Assembly: GCA_944336335.1 (NCBI GenBank)
Contig: CALVLC010000036.1
Location: 1 to 56,421, forward strand
DNA: 56,421 nt
Direction: 5' to 3'
Source of the DNA: an uncultured Bacilli bacterium
Lineage (GTDB): Bacteria; Bacillota_I; Bacilli_A; RFN20; CAG-826
Part shown: positions 45,340 through 52,558 of the stretch, in pieces
Layout: each line of letters opens with the position of its first letter
Numbering within the stretch: position 1 is the first letter of the stretch
Position numbers and translations under genes: made by a program
Notes under the pieces: model-generated
Told to the model about the DNA's origin: nothing
Database searches by the model: none
What the model saw: the letters and a program-made list of their open reading frames with translations, nothing else

Positions 45340-46614
45340 TTAATCAATTTCTTTTATAGGCAAATATGGAATTCCAAATTTTAAAACTTTTTTTCTAAGA
45401 TTGCTTTCTTTATTTGCATAATAGGATGATAAATAATTTCTTTTAAGTTCTGTAAGAGTTGAAATCGAAATATCACTTAGCCCGTTTTCTTTACAGGAAA
45501 AATAATGGTCTTTTTCGCGTTGCATTTCTTTTGGTAGAGAATCAAAAAGTGCGGATCCTATCATATAATCTAAGATTTTAATGTTAATTTGATCTAAATG
45601 CAAAGAAGAAATAAAATCAAAGTTTTCTAAAATCATTTCAACGGTTTCAATAGGAGAACCAATAATAAAATTACCAACTGTAAAAATGCCTTTAGTATTT
45701 GCATAAGTAATAATATCAATTATTTTTTCCTTTGAAATGTTTTTGTTATAAAATCTTAATACTTTTTCAGAAGAATTTTCTAATCCAAAACTAATAATTT
45801 TTACATTAGCATCGTAGGCTAAATCTAATAAATCAAAATCAATGTTTACTGTACTACTTAATGCGATATGCATATCATCAGAAATATTAAATTGTTTTAG
45901 CGCGTTTAAAATATTTTTCGCTCTATTTAAATCAAAAGTAAAATTATCATCTATAATCCAAACATTTTTTACACCCCTTTTTTTTAAATCAAGAAAATCT
46001 GAAATTATATAATCAAGCGAATGTGTTTTATATTGTGAATACCGCCCTTTTCTCTGACAAAAAGAACAGTTATTTAAACAACCTTGAGATGTTTGTATAA
46101 TGTTGGAAAAATTATTTAGTTTATAAAAAGGAATTTGATTTAATAAATCTCTATCAGGAAGGGGTAAGTCATCATATCTTATAATGTCAGAAAAATTGTT
46201 GTTTCCAATGAAATTACCTATAATTTTACAGATATTAAATCTTGGATCTGACTTACAAGTAAAATCGGCATAAGGTATATCTTCTTTTTTTGTTGCACAT
46301 AAATATCCAAACGCAATTACATTAGCATTTGTTGATTTCTTAATCTTACAAATTAAATCATAACCAGAATAAATGTTTTCTGATCTTTTAAGCGAAAAAG
46401 AATCAAAATCAACGAGCACAAAATCTATTGACTTAGAATTAATAAATTCAACTATTGTTCCATCATCAATTTCTTGGCATGATAAATCAAAAAAATAATT
46501 GTCAGATTGGAATGTTTTTTTTAGAATAGCAGATAAATAAGTAATATTAATAGAATACCCGAAACGGAAATGCTTTTTTTCGGTAGGTTTTGGATATATA
46601 AATAAACATTTCAT
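45340..46614 (-). CDS. B12-binding-type radical SAM protein (putative class B methyltransferase)
   Basis: N-terminal Rossmann-like domain (LFIYP..ITYLSAIL); QTSQGCLNNCSFC; IDDNF; SFGLENSSE; GNFIIGSPIET. Confidence 0.82.
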   Translation of the reverse strand: MKCLFIYPKPTEKKHFRFGYSINITYLSAILKKTFQSDNYFFDLSCQEIDDGTIVEFINSKSIDFVLVDFDSFSLKRSENIYSGYDLICKIKKSTNANVIAFGYLCATKKEDIPYADFTCKSDPRFNICKIIGNFIGNNNFSDIIRYDDLPLPDRDLLNQIPFYKLNNFSNIIQTSQGCLNNCSFCQRKGRYSQYKTHSLDYIISDFLDLKKRGVKNVWIIDDNFTFDLNRAKNILNALKQFNISDDMHIALSSTVNIDFDLLDLAYDANVKIISFGLENSSEKVLRFYNKNISKEKIIDIITYANTKGIFTVGNFIIGSPIETVEMILENFDFISSLHLDQINIKILDYMIGSALFDSLPKEMQREKDHYFSCKENGLSDISISTLTELKRNYLSSYYANKESNLRKKVLKFGIPYLPIKEID

Positions 46615-47390
46615 TTTTTCTCAACCTCGATCAACGCTCTTAGACCCCATGCTCCTCCGTCTTCTATCTCATGGTAAGGCCATAATCCATTAGTAATTTG
46701 AGTATTAACTAAAAAGTTATAGGCCTTCCTAATAGGCGAATCATAGTCAATATTTAAATATTCAATCAGAGCAATAATAGCTATTCCTGTGCAGTAAACG
46801 TTCGAACCTACAGGGTGCCCTTTCCAAGGCGCAAATCCTCCATTATCTTCTTGTTGTGTTAAAAGCCACAAAAGTGTATCATGTACAATTTTTTCTTTGC
46901 GCAAGGTCGGTTTTTTTGAAGCAGCCATTAAAAAATAAGCGGCTTTATAAGTAAGAGAATTTTTTTCGGACTCCCACAATTTTTTAAGTTCATTATATTT
47001 TTCTTCACTTCTTAACTCAGGAATCAAATAAAGCAAAATTCCAGTTACAGGAATTCTAGCAATATCCCTTTTTGTTCTTCCCCGAATTAAATTTTCTTTT
47101 TGAGATTTGAGCCGCTCAATTGCCTTTAATCTATTTTGTTCAAATTCTTCGAAATGAGAAAGAAAATATATTGTCCATATAGTATCAGTGTTGCCAACAA
47201 AACCTCCGTCATCTCTTTGCGATGAAACCACTTTTTCAATAAAAGCTTTTGGAATTGATTTAGTAGACATCCCGGCTAACAACAATTGAGAAAATAACTT
47301 GATCTGTCTCCCTAATTCTAAATCTTTCTTTCTCATTTCTTGTGTCATTTTATATAAACACATAAAAGCTTTATCGCTATAAACACTCAT
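46611..47390 (-). CDS. Prenyltransferase/squalene-oxidase-repeat (alpha/alpha barrel) protein
   Basis: QW-type repeats: VSSQRDDGGF, WLLTQQEDNGGF, FLVNTQITNGLW; AIE[CGG]LKSQ. Confidence 0.78.
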   Translation of the reverse strand: MSVYSDKAFMCLYKMTQEMRKKDLELGRQIKLFSQLLLAGMSTKSIPKAFIEKVVSSQRDDGGFVGNTDTIWTIYFLSHFEEFEQNRLKAIERLKSQKENLIRGRTKRDIARIPVTGILLYLIPELRSEEKYNELKKLWESEKNSLTYKAAYFLMAASKKPTLRKEKIVHDTLLWLLTQQEDNGGFAPWKGHPVGSNVYCTGIAIIALIEYLNIDYDSPIRKAYNFLVNTQITNGLWPYHEIEDGGAWGLRALIEVEKK

Positions 47391-48243
47391 AAAAATTAGA
47401 TTCCTTATTTAAAAAAATATCATTAATATCAGTAATATCCAGGAGCCACATAACAAATCTATCAATTCCAAAACCAAAACCTGCTTTTGGTTCTATATTG
47501 TTTTTAGCTGCATCTAAAAACCAACCCATCTTATCGGCAAACTTTAAAAAAGTAAATTTTTTTAAATAAAACTCGTAAGACGTTTCTCTTACTGAATATT
47601 CCACTATCTCACCAATGCGAGGGAAAATTAAATTTCCAGAAAAACCCTTTTTTGCTCTCCACGAAAACGATGTCGGTAGATTAGCCAAAAAAATAGGAAT
47701 TTTTGTTTTTTTACATAAAATATTAGAAACTTCATCAACATTGCCGCGCGAATCTCCAAGCAATTTATCCACCTTTAAAAAATCATAAACGGGGAAAAAA
47801 TTTTTAAAAATTTCCTTTTTATTAATAATAGTTATTTGATTACTTTCTAAATAATTATTAAATTTTTGTATCAAAAAATTTATAAAATGAAATAATAAAT
47901 TTTCAACTTCTATTAAAGTCCCGCAATTCCATTCAACCTCAAGTAAATGGAACTCAGATAAATGTGTTTCATCATTTAAATCATTTCTAAAAGCATGTGT
48001 AACTGTATATATATTCCCAAAAGTCGAAGATAAAGCAGAAAGTTTTAAAGAATTCGATGGTGTCAAAAATAGTGAGTTATTTTTTCCAAAATAAATTGTG
48101 TTTTTAAGGTTATCTACATATTTTTTTTGAACTATGTTTGTATCAACAAAAACAAAATTTTCGTTTTTAAAAAATTCATGAATATATAAAATAACATTTG
48201 AAAGAATCACAAAATAACAATCCTTTTTATTCAACTTTTCCAT
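47377..48243 (-). CDS. Class II aaRS (AsnRS/AspRS-like) catalytic-domain-only paralogue
   Basis: Motif 1 region (HEFFKNENFVFVDT), motif 2 AFRND..HLSEFHLLEVE, motif 3 GFGFGIDRFVMWL; 288 aa with no anticodon-binding OB fold. Confidence 0.85.
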   Translation of the reverse strand: MEKLNKKDCYFVILSNVILYIHEFFKNENFVFVDTNIVQKKYVDNLKNTIYFGKNNSLFLTPSNSLKLSALSSTFGNIYTVTHAFRNDLNDETHLSEFHLLEVEWNCGTLIEVENLLFHFINFLIQKFNNYLESNQITIINKKEIFKNFFPVYDFLKVDKLLGDSRGNVDEVSNILCKKTKIPIFLANLPTSFSWRAKKGFSGNLIFPRIGEIVEYSVRETSYEFYLKKFTFLKFADKMGWFLDAAKNNIEPKAGFGFGIDRFVMWLLDITDINDIFLNKESNFYECL

Positions 48244-49420
48244 AAGTCCAATTCAAAATCCTTGTGCCAAATGACATTTCAAATCCAAAAGAAGTAAAAA
48301 GTCTTATTATTTTTTCATTGTTTGAAAAAGTCTTAGCAATTATATTTGGAAAAATATTACAAAAAAATTCCAAAGCAAATTTAGAAATACCTTTTCCTCT
48401 TTCTTCAGGGAATATGTATATTTCCTCTAATACATGAATATTATGTAATCTTCCACTTTCTCTCATATAACCTACTAGTTTATCTTTTTCTAATATTGCA
48501 AAAGTATGCTTACATGAATTTAAATCTTTTAAAATAGAGCCTCTTTTATCATTAAATGATAAAAACTTTTTATCAATCTCGCTCATTTCTAATAGTTTCT
48601 TCTTTAATATATTTAAATAACAGGGCTTCATTATAACAACGGAGATTTTTGGCAAAGGCTTTTGATCTAAAAAAAGTTTCTTTGAAGTATTATAAAAAAT
48701 ATCTTGTAAAGTACCATTGTCAAAAAAAGAACAAAAAGACTTTATTTCTTCACGATAAGTATATCCTTTCGTAAAATAAATTTTTCCGAAAGGATAATCT
48801 GTACCAAACAAAATCCTGTTAGAGCCAACTATTTTAATTGCATCTAAAATAGTTTGATAATTTCCAACAGTCGACGTCTCAAAATAAACGTTATCGTAGT
48901 TTTTTAGTTTCTTTACATTTTCTAAAACCATATCACTTTCATAAATATGCCCTCTACCCATATGAGCTAAAATGATATCTAATTTAGGTGCAACTCTCAG
49001 TATTTTTTTGATTTGCTTTGGCTTATCAAGAAATGCCGCGTGTATAATAAGTGGTCTTTTATAATACTCTAAAATTTTATAATACAAATAAAGAGAACTT
49101 GAGGGTATCTTTTCGTAGACTACATGGTATTTAGCGCCTTTGAATCCGTTAAAAATATTTTCAACCAAAAAATCATCAAATCTTACAATTGGTAAAATTC
49201 TACCATTAGAATTTATCATAGCCGAAAGCAAGTATTCATTATTTTTATTAGAATCATATCCCATGTCAGGAATCGGTAATCCACAACAAAAATCAACACC
49301 ATTATCATCCATTATTTTTAAAAATGAAGGATAATCATTGTTTAAATTATAATGAAAATTGCTCTCCGAAATTTTGAAATCTTCTAAGCCAAAATGAACA
49401 TGACTATCAATTATTTTCAT
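48227..49420 (-). CDS. Amidohydrolase_2-family metallohydrolase fused to a C-terminal GNAT-like domain
   Basis: IIDSHVH, IIHA, ILAHMG, LFGTDYPF; C-terminal IYIFPEERGKGIS acetyl-CoA motif. Confidence 0.82.
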   Translation of the reverse strand: MKIIDSHVHFGLEDFKISESNFHYNLNNDYPSFLKIMDDNGVDFCCGLPIPDMGYDSNKNNEYLLSAMINSNGRILPIVRFDDFLVENIFNGFKGAKYHVVYEKIPSSSLYLYYKILEYYKRPLIIHAAFLDKPKQIKKILRVAPKLDIILAHMGRGHIYESDMVLENVKKLKNYDNVYFETSTVGNYQTILDAIKIVGSNRILFGTDYPFGKIYFTKGYTYREEIKSFCSFFDNGTLQDIFYNTSKKLFLDQKPLPKISVVIMKPCYLNILKKKLLEMSEIDKKFLSFNDKRGSILKDLNSCKHTFAILEKDKLVGYMRESGRLHNIHVLEEIYIFPEERGKGISKFALEFFCNIFPNIIAKTFSNNEKIIRLFTSFGFEMSFGTRILNWTYGKVE

Positions 49421-49700
49421 CTATTTCTACTAAAAATATAATTTTCTTTTGCAATGCTTCGGAATAAAACAATAATATATCGTCTTTTAAAGTGGTTTTT
49501 TCCACATCAAAAATTTTTGTTAACTCATTTACAATATCATCAATATTTCTTTTTCCATCAGCATTTTCAAGCATTTTAAATGACACTAAGTTTAATCTAT
49601 ACTGATTCCCATCATTCACATTTAAAGCCCGAAAAGAATTGTTTACACTTTTTAGAATAACATCATCATTCAACTTTAAAATTGTTCTTCCATCCAACAT
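49407..49700 (-). CDS. PqqD-family RiPP recognition element
   Basis: 97 aa; GNQYRLNLVSFKMLENADGKRNIDDIVNELTKIFDV..DILLF pattern; GGAGG RBS inside the upstream gene. Confidence 0.87.
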   Translation of the reverse strand: MLDGRTILKLNDDVILKSVNNSFRALNVNDGNQYRLNLVSFKMLENADGKRNIDDIVNELTKIFDVEKTTLKDDILLFYSEALQKKIIFLVEIDENN

Positions 49701-50713
49701 TGAGGATCCTCCGCTAAATAATCATTTGTTAAAGCAAAAGCTACAGCACGGCATCCACCACATTTGCTAATATTTTTGCAATTATGGCACTTACCTTTTA
49801 AATTATTTTTATCTCTAATATCCCATAAGATTTTACTTGAATACCAAGTTTTAAAAATTCCATCAGTAAAAATATTGCCAATAGGTATTTCAAGTCTACG
49901 GCAAGGTAATAAAGTACCATCACACAAAATTGCTAAACAAGTAAAGCCAACAGGGCAAAACCCGCCGACTTTATTATCAAAAGAATTTTTTGACAAATTC
50001 GCCCATAATGGTCTAGTTCTTCTAATTGCTATTTCGTTAGAAAGTTTTTCAGCTTCTAAATTAATTTGTTCATAAATGCGATGTATTTCATCACTAGAAA
50101 TAATATCTTCATTAGCGCTATGCCCACACGGAGTAACTCTTTCTAAAGAAATATAATCAATATTCTCTTTAATGGCTAAACTAATAAAATTAAAAATGTC
50201 ATTTTTATTTTTATTAGTAATTGTAAACATGCTAGATACTTTGAAGTTATATTTTTTTAATAACCTAATACCATCAATAGCCTTATCAAAATTACCTTCG
50301 CCACGCGTAGCATCATGTACATGTTGTGTGCCACCATCAAGAGAGACCTGAATTTCATCGAGTTTATTATATTTCAAAAGTTTTTTGCATATTTCATCAT
50401 CAATTAAAGTTCCGTTAGTAAGGATATGGATAGAACAAATTCTATCTTGCTTATCAAGATAATCAAGCAAAGCAAAAAGAGATTTGCTCATGAAAGGTTC
50501 GCCGCCAGTAAGTGAAATTCTTCCAAACATGTTCCATTTATTCAAAGCTTCAATAATTTTATTAGCAATTTCAATCAACTTTTCAAAAGGTAACTCAAAA
50601 AAATTGTAATCTCCCTGATAACAATGACTACACCTTAAATTACAATAATTTAAAAAATGCCATTGAAAATAAAATTCATTGGCAGAATTTCTTTTATTCT
50701 GTTTATTTTCCAT
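49676..50713 (-). CDS. Radical SAM/SPASM-domain peptide maturase
   Basis: CNLRCSHC, LTGGEP, TNGTL, SLDG; full SPASM CPVGFTCLAILCDGTLLPC..CHNCKNISKCGGC..DPQC. Confidence 0.92.
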   Translation of the reverse strand: MENKQNKRNSANEFYFQWHFLNYCNLRCSHCYQGDYNFFELPFEKLIEIANKIIEALNKWNMFGRISLTGGEPFMSKSLFALLDYLDKQDRICSIHILTNGTLIDDEICKKLLKYNKLDEIQVSLDGGTQHVHDATRGEGNFDKAIDGIRLLKKYNFKVSSMFTITNKNKNDIFNFISLAIKENIDYISLERVTPCGHSANEDIISSDEIHRIYEQINLEAEKLSNEIAIRRTRPLWANLSKNSFDNKVGGFCPVGFTCLAILCDGTLLPCRRLEIPIGNIFTDGIFKTWYSSKILWDIRDKNNLKGKCHNCKNISKCGGCRAVAFALTNDYLAEDPQCWMEEQF

Positions 50714-50741: not shown

Positions 50742-50885
50742 TTAGTTACAGTTACAGTTTGAGCAGCCAAAACACCAATGACCATTATTAAATTCGTCCC
50801 AAACTTCCTTTGTGAAAACCATGTTTTCTTCTACTAAAAGAATTGGTTTTTCATAAGTAATTTTATTATCCAATTTTTTTTCCAT
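50742..50885 (-). CDS. Putative RiPP precursor, 47 aa: MEKKLDNKITYEKPILLVEENMVFTKEVWDEFNNGHWCFGCSNCNCN (absent from the ORF track)
   Basis: AAGGAGG RBS 8 nt before ATG 50885; YxxP leader motif; Cys/Trp/Asn-rich C-terminus; stop 28 nt before the rSAM/SPASM start. Confidence 0.88.
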   Translation of the reverse strand: MEKKLDNKITYEKPILLVEENMVFTKEVWDEFNNGHWCFGCSNCNCN

Positions 50886-51139: not shown

Positions 51140-52558
51140 CTATTTTAATCGCCAAGATAATTCGCCATCTGCCATTAAAAGCTCTTCTCGTATTGCATCA
51201 TAATATTTTGTAACAACATAATCATCAAAGCGTCTAGCTTCAGAAAGGTATCTTAATGCTGAGTCTTTATTAACATCAACTCCTTCACCATAATAATAAC
51301 GTAAAGCCTTAAATTTATAGACTCTTGAATCTCCTCTAACATCAGCCAAAGAGAAAAAGTGTTCCGCTCTCTCATAATCTTGTTCTACGCCTAAACCATA
51401 ATAATGACAAACACCTAAACAATAGAGAGAATCTACATTATATTTAGCACTACCTTCTATAAAATACTTCACAGCTTCATCATATTTTTTTAATGAGTAA
51501 TAAAATCTACCTATAAGTGAGGCCTGACTCGGATAGGGATATCTTTTATAACCATAAATTAATAAATCACAAGCTTCTTCAACTCCTTCTCTATCTCCTA
51601 TTCCATGATCTAAATACAATTTCAAAATACTTTCGTATAAATTTTCATAATAGTGGTTTCCTACAAGATTATAACGTCTAATTAAAGCAAAACACGTTTT
51701 TGCCAAAGTAGTTGTTTGAAAATAGTCATGTTTCTTTAATAGCCAAAGAAAATCTACTAAATAATCTAAACCACCAATCTCAATTGCTTTTAAATAATAA
51801 GAAATAGCTTGGTTAATATCTACTTTTGGACCATAAAGATATTGGTAAGAATAAATTTCACCAAGTCTTTCGTATGCTTTTGCAGATCCTATAGAACTAT
51901 ATTTTTTCGCCAGTTCCAATTCAGCTGGTATATTCCTTTTATTATAAGTCTTTGAGTATTCACATTCTTGTTGAAAACGCTTATCTAAATCGGTTAGTTC
52001 AGTTCTACGAATGTAATTAGGTAATTCAATCTTAAAATCTAATTTTTTGATATCTTCACTCTTATTAGAAAAATTTGCGTCACATGTTTTTGAGTCTGAT
52101 TTAATTCTTTCAAAATAATAATCAAGTATCTTATCTTCTTCATTAAGATAATGCTTTTCTTCGTTTGGCTTTGGAACAACGATAGTAGAAAAATTAATAA
52201 GATTCTCCTTTGAATGATCTTCAGTAATATTTATACCATTGAAAAAACTCAATAAATTTTCTTCACTGCCATAAAGAGCCTTAACAAACCACTTTAATCC
52301 TTCATGTGCAAACTTTTCATCCATTAAGTAATTTTCTTTTACGTCATAAACAATACTTTGAAGATCTTCTTTAGATTTTATTGAGCAAACAGCTTTTAAA
52401 ATATCATCTTCACAAAATATTTTTAATATTCTTAATTCTTTTCTTCTATCAGGAAGAAAGTCGCTAAATAATGAAAATAGTCTTTTTCCATCATCAAAAA
52501 TATCATCAGAATATTGTTCTTTAATTTTTTTAATAATCTCAATGACATAATCATCCAT
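51140..52558 (-). CDS. Sel1-like repeat protein
   Basis: LYCLGVCHYYGLGVEQDYERA, YYYGEGVDVNKDSA, AYERLGEIYSY..GPKVDINQAISYY. Confidence 0.85.
   Translation of the reverse strand: MDDYVIEIIKKIKEQYSDDIFDDGKRLFSLFSDFLPDRRKELRILKIFCEDDILKAVCSIKSKEDLQSIVYDVKENYLMDEKFAHEGLKWFVKALYGSEENLLSFFNGINITEDHSKENLINFSTIVVPKPNEEKHYLNEEDKILDYYFERIKSDSKTCDANFSNKSEDIKKLDFKIELPNYIRRTELTDLDKRFQQECEYSKTYNKRNIPAELELAKKYSSIGSAKAYERLGEIYSYQYLYGPKVDINQAISYYLKAIEIGGLDYLVDFLWLLKKHDYFQTTTLAKTCFALIRRYNLVGNHYYENLYESILKLYLDHGIGDREGVEEACDLLIYGYKRYPYPSQASLIGRFYYSLKKYDEAVKYFIEGSAKYNVDSLYCLGVCHYYGLGVEQDYERAEHFFSLADVRGDSRVYKFKALRYYYGEGVDVNKDSALRYLSEARRFDDYVVTKYYDAIREELLMADGELSWRLK

Follow-up and report, generated by a model that had tools for sequence, protein, structure and literature searches.

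The β subunits of the protein prenyltransferases (FTase, GGTase-I, RabGGTase, and GGTase-III; Pfam Prenyltrans, PF00432) are (α/α)6 barrels with GGF/W loops ahead of their inner helices, and their substrate is a cysteine near a free C terminus. LanC is an α/α toroid that acts on the cysteine thiols of ribosomal peptides and has a Cys/His zinc site at the N termini of inner helices, whereas the class II terpene cyclases, including squalene-hopene cyclase (SHC), drimenyl diphosphate synthase (SsDMS), and MstE, are β-γ didomain proteins with the active site at the domain interface, and the thioester domains (TED) of C3d, α2-macroglobulin, TEP1, and CD109 sit in large secreted proteins. The ranthipeptides/SCIFF, the ACGX system, and mycofactocin represent systems of another type, in which a radical S-adenosylmethionine (SAM) enzyme with a SPASM domain is found together with a PqqD protein. 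The protein considered here, referred to as the toroid, has 259 residues and is encoded on the contig CALVLC010000036.1 (assembly GCA_944336335.1) of an uncultured Bacilli bacterium, positions 1 to 56,421 of which were analyzed and are called the window. The toroid is the one tailoring protein that is present in every cluster examined of a new radical SAM peptide family.

A first-pass annotation of the window had linked the toroid to a cysteine-rich C-terminal peptide tail, and the same association extends over about 120 loci in three subfamilies, namely the near group, to which the window belongs, a sister group, and a far branch. In all of these loci the toroid gene is accompanied by genes for a radical SAM/SPASM enzyme, a PqqD protein, and a short peptide, and other tailoring genes are exchanged between the subfamilies. 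Such co-location across taxa is in line with a tailoring enzyme of an RRE-dependent radical SAM peptide pathway. Y-x-x-P is the motif common to the leaders of these peptides, and their C-terminal tails follow the pattern C-x-x-C-[S/T]-x-C-x(1-2)-C-x(1-2)-end, which some far-branch tails only approximate. It should be recognized that all of the loci were found through toroid searches and that they therefore describe the company of the toroid, not a need of the clusters for it. An indexed protein search returned 306 toroid homologues, the 120 listed having 239–277 residues and 45–63% identity, and an exhaustive profile search gave about 65 full-length representatives of 50%-identity clusters, with identities down to 21–25%; lengths in the family are 260–300 residues. 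The toroid gene is a real, strongly conserved gene, and the pathway is a widespread radical SAM peptide system that is apparently undescribed: a full-text search of the available literature found no paper on it, and a recent paper on archaeal thioether proteins makes no mention of such a toroid.

In the window, the toroid gene is the sixth of seven co-directional and mostly overlapping open reading frames, given here in the direction of transcription.

50742 to 50885, minus strand: precursor of 47 amino acids, leader motif Y-E-K-P, core HWCFGCSNCNCN (open reading frame and precursors of relatives)
49676 to 50713, minus strand: radical SAM/SPASM maturase (Pfam, NCBIfam)
49407 to 49700, minus strand: PqqD-type peptide-recognition protein (Pfam, NCBIfam)
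48227 to 49420, minus strand: fusion of Amidohydro_2 and GNAT domains (Pfam)
47377 to 48243, minus strand: AsnRS/AsnA-like class II core lacking the anticodon domain, overlapping the toroid start by 14 nucleotides (Pfam, NCBIfam)
46611 to 47390, minus strand: toroid gene, 259 amino acids, single (α/α)6 barrel of the terpenoid cyclase/prenyltransferase β/TED superfamily
45340 to 46614, minus strand: B12-type radical SAM gene, its start overlapping the toroid stop by 4 nucleotides (Pfam, NCBIfam)

The C terminus of the precursor is WCFGCSNCNCN, and the open reading frame at 50742–50885 thus confirms the C-N-C-N ending that had been noticed earlier. The precursor had also been described as lying next to the toroid; the two genes do belong to one overlapping operon, but the precursor is upstream, four genes and 3.35 kb away. 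The precursor matched no model in the NCBIfam scan. In the same database the radical SAM/SPASM enzyme scores 164 bits with WgkB and, second best, 157 bits with the ACGX model (cut-off 400), both far under the model cut-offs.

Taken alone, the window protein falls short of the Pfam gathering cut-offs for Prenyltrans (20.4 bits, cut-off 26.5) and TED (PF07678; 20.3 bits, cut-off 22), its NCBIfam matches are squalene/hopene-cyclase models only and far below threshold (squalene_cyclas, E 2.3e-7), and a search of PDB chain sequences with the single protein gave no significant match. When 53 diverse family members were scanned with Pfam models, SQHop_cyclase_C matched 48 (best E 4e-19), Prenyltrans 45 (best 6e-11, with some relatives above threshold), and TED_complement 41 (best 5.5e-11). 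A profile built from 52 family sequences matched SHC chains among the PDB sequences with an E of 2e-7, and RabGGTase β with an E of 1.6. At the level of sequence, the likeness to the cyclase and prenyltransferase families is beyond chance.

The structural predictions point in the same direction. The AlphaFold2 model of the window toroid, made with the family alignment, has a predicted local distance difference test score (pLDDT) of 94.7 and a predicted template modeling score (pTM) of 0.92, and its 12 helices form one (α/α)6 toroid; the model of a sister-group toroid (pLDDT 94.1) has the same 12-helix layout. In Foldseek, class II terpene cyclases and TED domains head the matches of the window model with a probability of 1.0 (top matches, E 3.5e-6, TM about 0.66–0.71), the order in the PDB beginning with drimenyl diphosphate synthase, small SHC-like cyclases, oxidosqualene cyclase, MstE, and TED domains; the sister-group model has the same neighbors and, in addition, RabGGTase β and GGTase-III β (TM 0.66–0.67). 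Among the three relatives put forward in the first-pass annotation, SHC-type cyclases are the nearest, the GGTase β subunits are matched by the sister-group model, and LanC is not among the top 50 matches of either model. Because profile matches, model, and Foldseek neighbors agree, the fold assignment is confirmed, and the toroid is, as modeled, a soluble single-barrel (α/α)6 protein of the cyclase/prenyltransferase β/TED superfamily, as the annotation had proposed from an α/α barrel with QW-like repeats. Three clear QW-like loops are present, and a fourth, degenerate one occupies residues 97–104. These loops and the principal conserved positions map as follows.

47307 to 47309, minus strand: codon of Arg28, start of inner helix 2, invariant in 205 of 205 family members
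47199 to 47219, minus strand: QW-like loop 1, Q58-RDDGGF64 (Q58-x2-DGGF64), from the sequence and family alignment
47049 to 47081, minus strand: Arg-rich loop G104-R-x-x-R108-D109-x-x-R112-I-P114, from the alignment and model
46944 to 46949, minus strand: codons of Tyr148 and Lys149 in the LTYKAA motif, start of inner helix 8; Lys149 in 205 of 205, Tyr148 in 204 of 205
46788 to 46856, minus strand: QW-like loop 2 (Q179/Q180-x3-GGF186), with His192 and N197-V-Y-C200-T201 at the start of inner helix 10
46656 to 46700, minus strand: QW-like loop 3 (Q231-x3-G-x-W237), with Y239-H240-E-I-E243-D244-G before inner helix 12

Over the 205 aligned toroids of the near, sister, and far groups, Arg28 and Lys149 are without exception, Tyr148 is replaced once, His240 is present in 203 and Arg108 in 196, Asp109, Arg112, Trp139, Trp237, and an acid at position 142 are essentially invariant, and an acid is found at position 243 in every sequence. 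In the secondary structure string (DSSP) of the AlphaFold2 model, the conserved residues lie where inner helices 2, 4, 6, 8, 10, and 12 begin or in the loops that lead into these helices, a topology from which they are inferred to ring one mouth of the barrel. The Arg-rich loop, which like one other stretch was modeled with lower confidence (pLDDT about 84–85), may be a lid or an anion-binding loop. Position 200 is Cys in 77 of 77 near-group proteins, Ser in 68 and Cys in 9 of 78 sister-group proteins, and Tyr in the far branch, and position 197 covaries with it, being mostly Asn where residue 200 is Cys and Asp or Glu where it is Ser. All 77 near-group toroids have N/D197, Cys200, and His240. 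The loss of His192 coincides with a change of Tyr239 to Glu, which looks like a compensating swap.

The window subfamily shares with the prenyltransferase β subunits a Cys where the 10th barrel helix starts and a His before the 12th. In FTase β, the zinc ligands Asp297 and Cys299 lie at the beginning of barrel helix 10 and His362 lies on helix 12, positions that we take to be those of Cys200 and His240; this correspondence is a lead and not a test. The zinc ligands that the first-pass annotation suggested looking for have a candidate set in His192, Cys200, His240, and residue 197, but the set does not hold throughout, Cys200 being Ser in most of the sister proteins. In one weak hidden Markov model alignment (6 bits), Cys200 of N197-V-Y-C200 falls over the acid motif D374-x-D376-D377 of SHC.

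The toroid may be an enzyme, probably metal-assisted, by which the precursor's C-terminal tail is held and an S–C bond is formed at a cysteine; this is the reading that we prefer, tentatively and with less than even confidence. The barrel mouth would take up the free C-terminal tail, probably after cross-linking by the radical SAM/SPASM enzyme, and the basic cluster of Arg28, Lys149, and Tyr148 would, with the Arg loop, anchor an anionic group, either the carboxylate of the C terminus or a co-substrate diphosphate. A divalent metal, probably zinc, would be held by His240, His192, and Cys200 in the window subfamily, with D/E197 contributing in the sister group, and would activate a cysteine thiol for ionic S–C bond formation. 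The bond could arise by S-alkylation with an allylic diphosphate available in the host, such as dimethylallyl diphosphate (DMAPP) or a cis-polyprenyl diphosphate, or alternatively by an intramolecular addition for which the invariant Ser/Thr of the core would be turned into the electrophilic residue.

Several observations weigh against S–C bond formation by a metal-assisted toroid. The near and sister groups retain His192, which the far branch has lost, and Cys200 is not conserved beyond the window subfamily. The toroid alignments contain neither the LanC motifs GxAHG, WCxG, and CHG nor any zinc-site motif of prenyltransferase β or LanC; LANC_like matches 2 of the 53 scanned family members (best E 0.0033; window toroid, 0.038), and the top 50 Foldseek matches of the window toroid include neither prenyltransferase β subunits nor LanC, the latter being absent from the top 50 of the sister-group model as well. 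No Ser/Thr dehydratase (LanB or a LanM/LanKC/LanL domain) is found among the annotated genes of the window operon and related loci. A trans-polyprenyl synthase (PF00348) was detected in none of 16 genomes, comprising the host metagenome-assembled genome (MAG) and 15 others of the same genus, many of them at least 94% complete, with 14 of 14 control genomes positive, and a search of the 1.06 Mb surrounding 121 toroid genes gave no homologue of a polyprenyl synthase. Finally, a charged, Arg-rich pocket would fit the handling of a carboxylate or adenylate equally well.

With regard to the donor, farnesyl or geranylgeranyl diphosphates are unlikely in this host because its genus is without trans-polyprenyl synthase, and DMAPP, isopentenyl diphosphate, and cis-polyprenyl diphosphates are possible donors because IspH and UppS are present in the host lineage. 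Prenylation as the chemistry of the toroid is unproven. Of the prenyltransferase- or LanC-type action proposed in the first-pass annotation, the fold has stood up, but the defining motifs of prenyltransferase β, LanC, and the class II cyclases are absent, and what a prenyltransferase β subunit would bring with it is missing in that there is no conserved α-like partner, no polyprenyl synthase in the 121 loci, and no farnesyl or geranylgeranyl diphosphate synthase in the host genus. The same findings bear on classical S-farnesylation or S-geranylgeranylation of the CxC tail by a protein prenyltransferase-like toroid. The common fold superfamily and the cysteine-rich C-terminal substrate speak for such a reaction, as do the hydrolase and carboxyl-capping-type genes of the operons, which recall CaaX processing, yet the PF00432 score is below threshold, the profile E for RabGGTase β is 1.6, an α-subunit-like partner is not conserved and neither is the D-x-C...H triad, and the trans-polyprenyl synthase is found neither in the host and the 15 genomes of its genus nor around the toroid genes, so that we regard this reaction as very unlikely.

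The host MAG is about 2 Mb in size and 80% complete and belongs to a small-genome lineage (relatives, 0.8–2.0 Mb). None of 40 relatives of the host has the toroid operon, and the operon therefore looks acquired.

It is also conceivable, though somewhat unlikely, that the barrel has no catalytic role and serves as a holder of the C-terminal tail, or of the leader jointly with PqqD, which hands the peptide to the radical SAM enzymes or shields its reactive thiols. This would account for the constant presence of the toroid with the radical SAM/SPASM enzyme and PqqD, for the overlap of PqqD and toroid genes in far-branch loci, and for the coupling of the toroid and B12-type radical SAM genes in 33 of 33 near-group loci, and none of the canonical catalytic motifs of known toroid enzymes is present in the protein. 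Against a holder stands the retention, complete or nearly so, of Arg28, Lys149, Tyr148, His240, and the acid at 243 down to about 21–25% identity despite differing core peptides, and the paired changes at positions 192 (His) and 239 (Glu) and at 200 (Cys) and 197 (Asp/Glu) look like those of an active or metal site rather than of a peptide-docking surface.

Scanning a single genome for each species yielded 27 loci with the conserved operon, in Bacillota, Bacteroidota, Planctomycetota, Omnitrophota, Aminicenantes, Riflebacteria, Fibrobacter, and Desulfamplus; three of the 27 are in cultured carriers that are not labeled as MAGs (Bengtsoniella intestinalis BP47G, a complete genome, Lachnoclostridium sp. 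An131, and Desulfamplus magnetovallimortis). Seven contig loci were found besides these; MAG contigs of Treponema, Selenomonadaceae, and Phascolarctobacterium carry the operon. In the near group, 28 of 28 precursors end in the invariant tail WCFGC[S/T]NCNCN, the Ser/Thr being the sole variable position of the core, and the leaders diverge. The position of the precursor gene differs among the loci compared (L001–L033), lying between PqqD and the amidohydrolase in most relatives, upstream of the radical SAM/SPASM gene in the window and in L020, and downstream of the B12-type radical SAM gene in L018. Sel1/TPR-repeat genes flank the operon in the window (51140–52558) and in the Phascolarctobacterium and Selenomonadaceae loci (L006:10625–11284 and L004:11638–12843) but not in most others; that of the window may be a member of the adjoining kinase/vWA/PP2C group instead of the toroid operon.

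The B12-type radical SAM gene directly follows the toroid gene in all 33 near-group loci, and this arrangement raises the question of whether the toroid is an accessory to that enzyme, such as a protein that binds or delivers cobalamin. The α domain of transcobalamin is an α6/α6 barrel. In Treponema-type contigs, an IS110-family transposase gene lies between the AsnRS-like gene and the toroid (L001:7027–7950, L002:5091–6155, and L003:6886–7950), and the insertion splits the operon, the toroid and B12-type radical SAM genes staying together. The adjacent or overlapping genes of the 33 loci, together even after this split, are what such a role has in its favor. However, a phmmer search with the window B12-type radical SAM protein found no homologue in sister loci, where the genes scanned with Pfam are of other families, none lies beside the toroid in the far-branch contigs seen, and Cobalamin_bind (PF01122) gave no match among the 53 family members scanned. 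Cobalamin binding as a family-wide function was rejected on the lack of a PF01122 match and of a detectable B12-type radical SAM gene in the sister clusters, and an accessory role of this kind is, overall, highly improbable.

The sister group comprises 80 loci (L042–L121) from sediment and groundwater metagenomes. In hhalign, its toroids match those of the near group from end to end (probability 100%, E 2e-81), and its gene order is radical SAM/SPASM, PqqD, precursor, TPR–metallo-β-lactamase (MBL) protein, toroid, AsnB-like protein, a protein of about 600 residues, and glycosyltransferase. The TPR and MBL-fold fusion has 1050–1100 residues, and its gene lies directly upstream of the toroid gene and overlaps it; the protein of about 570–610 residues is conserved among the clusters and has no Pfam match (examples of the two are L042:2383–5691, L090:4143–7319, L046:11304–13007, and L059:7916–9739). 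Every sister precursor candidate recovered ends in CxQCSxCHxCR, the final Arg being once replaced by Lys or Trp, with the consensus [VI]C[RKM]QCS[SGN]CH[GN]CR (e.g. L042:1420–1560 and L046:3589–3732). The sister precursors form a second family, as frozen in sequence as that of the window, and the two are alike in their C-x-x-C-S-x-C pattern and Y-x-K-P leader motif. An intermediate locus has radical SAM/SPASM, PqqD, a precursor ending in ACRQCASCHGCR, toroid, AsnB-like protein, glycosyltransferase, a B12-type radical SAM enzyme, and a second radical SAM enzyme. In the far branch, two to three tandem cysteine-rich precursors are followed by PqqD and an overlapping toroid gene, with a GNAT gene in one case, and the precursor tails end, for example, in SCSTCACGCHD, CCASCSTCGCY, or GCYSCTCMCGD. 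The far-branch precursors have 27–32 residues from the leader Met (L038:51–401 and L035:249–429), and their tails resemble the "ACGX" repeat peptides of the ACGX system in NCBIfam.

In the two large groups, the toroid stands beside a carboxylate-adenylating "asparagine synthetase" of unrelated folds, AsnA/AsnRS-like in the near group and AsnB-like in the sister group. The AsnRS-like gene is absent from three near-group lineages (Selenomonadaceae, an uncultured proteobacterium, and Fibrobacter), which carry in its stead a creatininase-family hydrolase and a TehB-like SAM methyltransferase, and in one Aminicenantes locus a methyltransferase occupies the slot of the AsnRS-like gene; the loci compared are the window (47377–48243), L042:6481–8295, L011, L029:5093–6498, L033:11080–12431, and L026:5678–6550. 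The AsnA/AsnRS-like protein, the AsnB-like protein, and the pair of creatininase and SAM methyltransferase appear to replace one another, so that a carboxylate, or else a thiol, may be capped in alternative ways, and these natural swaps show which steps of the pathway are exchangeable. The metal hydrolase is likewise exchangeable among loci, being Amidohydro_2, MBL, or creatininase. The cores of the window and sister groups contain no Asp or Glu, and some far-branch cores have a C-terminal Asp. Because the neighboring enzymes swap and the large-group cores have neither acid, trimming and capping of the C-terminal carboxylate is suggested to be part of the pathway. This recalls CaaX processing by analogy only, and the methyltransferase could equally act on sulfur.

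One way of combining these elements with the fold is that the toroid is a single-subunit, prenyltransferase β-like barrel that prenylates a tail cysteine, after which a metal hydrolase of the amidohydrolase, MBL, or creatininase type would trim the peptide and amidation by the AsnA-like or AsnB-like protein, or methylation by the SAM methyltransferase, would cap it, giving a bacterial counterpart of the CaaX/CxC processing of eukaryotes. We consider this distinctly unlikely; if true, it would represent the first cysteine-prenylated radical SAM peptide and the first α-subunit-free relative of the protein prenyltransferases.

Another is that the toroid is an acyltransferase or cyclase of the C terminus, a rather doubtful alternative in which the adenylating neighbor would activate the carboxylate and the toroid would bind the acyl-adenylate or carboxylate in its basic pocket. 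Capture by residue 200 (Cys, Ser, or Tyr), or by a thiol or amine of the peptide, would then yield a thiolactone, a lactam, or a capped terminus. In both large groups the immediate neighbor of the toroid is an enzyme that adenylates carboxylates, with unrelated folds in the two, which agrees with this reading, as do the lack of Asp and Glu in the large-group cores, which therefore have the C terminus as their only carboxylate, the alternation of nucleophilic side chains at position 200, a conserved pocket rich in Arg, Lys, and Tyr, and the relationship of the fold to thioester-bearing TED domains. However, the near-group operons that have no AsnRS-like gene still have a toroid with Cys200, the far-branch loci seen, which are on short contigs, have no adjacent adenylating enzyme, and most AsnB-like partners retain their glutamine-amidotransferase domain, so that plain amidation needs no toroid.

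With the prenyltransferase β subunits the toroid has in common the (α/α)6 barrel, the GGF/W-type loops, and an association with a cysteine-rich C terminus, that of the precursor in its operon; it is smaller (259 residues compared with roughly 330–440), is bacterial, and is encoded within a radical SAM peptide operon, and the D-x-C...H zinc triad is not conserved across its family, Cys200 being Ser in the sister group. The window operon has no helical-repeat protein resembling a prenyltransferase α subunit, Sel1/TPR neighbors occur in only a few loci, and the TPR–MBL protein is confined to the sister group; the Sel1/TPR genes were rejected as an α-like partner since they are not conserved across loci. 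A canonical prenyltransferase β was likewise rejected, because the triad is not conserved across the family, an α-subunit partner is lacking, and the profile score is below threshold. The class II terpene cyclases provide the best matches in both sequence and structure and share the QW-like motifs, but the toroid is a single barrel, its conserved pocket residues are charged, and its context is that of a peptide and not of isoprenoids; the DxDD general acid of the cyclases is absent, the weakly aligning position reading N-V-Y-C-T. With one barrel and no DxDD (or DxDT/E), assignment as a class II cyclase (SHC/OSC, PF13243/PF13249) was rejected. Assignment as a LanC-like cyclase (PF05147) was rejected on the absence of the LanC motifs and of a dehydratase nearby. 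The thioester domains are also fold neighbors, but the toroid is free-standing and cytosolic, and a thioester domain was rejected because CxEQ is absent from the sequence and the family alignment.

The closest parallels to the pathway as a whole are with the radical SAM/SPASM and PqqD systems, namely the ranthipeptides/SCIFF, the ACGX system, and mycofactocin, none of which is known to include an α/α toroid. The peptide-modification system considered here extends over roughly ten bacterial phyla with a peptide core almost frozen in sequence, and each of its clusters examined has the toroid, the role of which, be it S-alkylation, cyclization, acyl transfer, or holding, is not one described for radical SAM peptides. 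Working out that role would lead to a new peptide class and possibly to new enzyme chemistry on cysteine. The operon logic, with a short precursor that has a cysteine-rich or highly conserved C-terminal core, is the same in the toroid pathway as in the described radical SAM/SPASM and PqqD systems.

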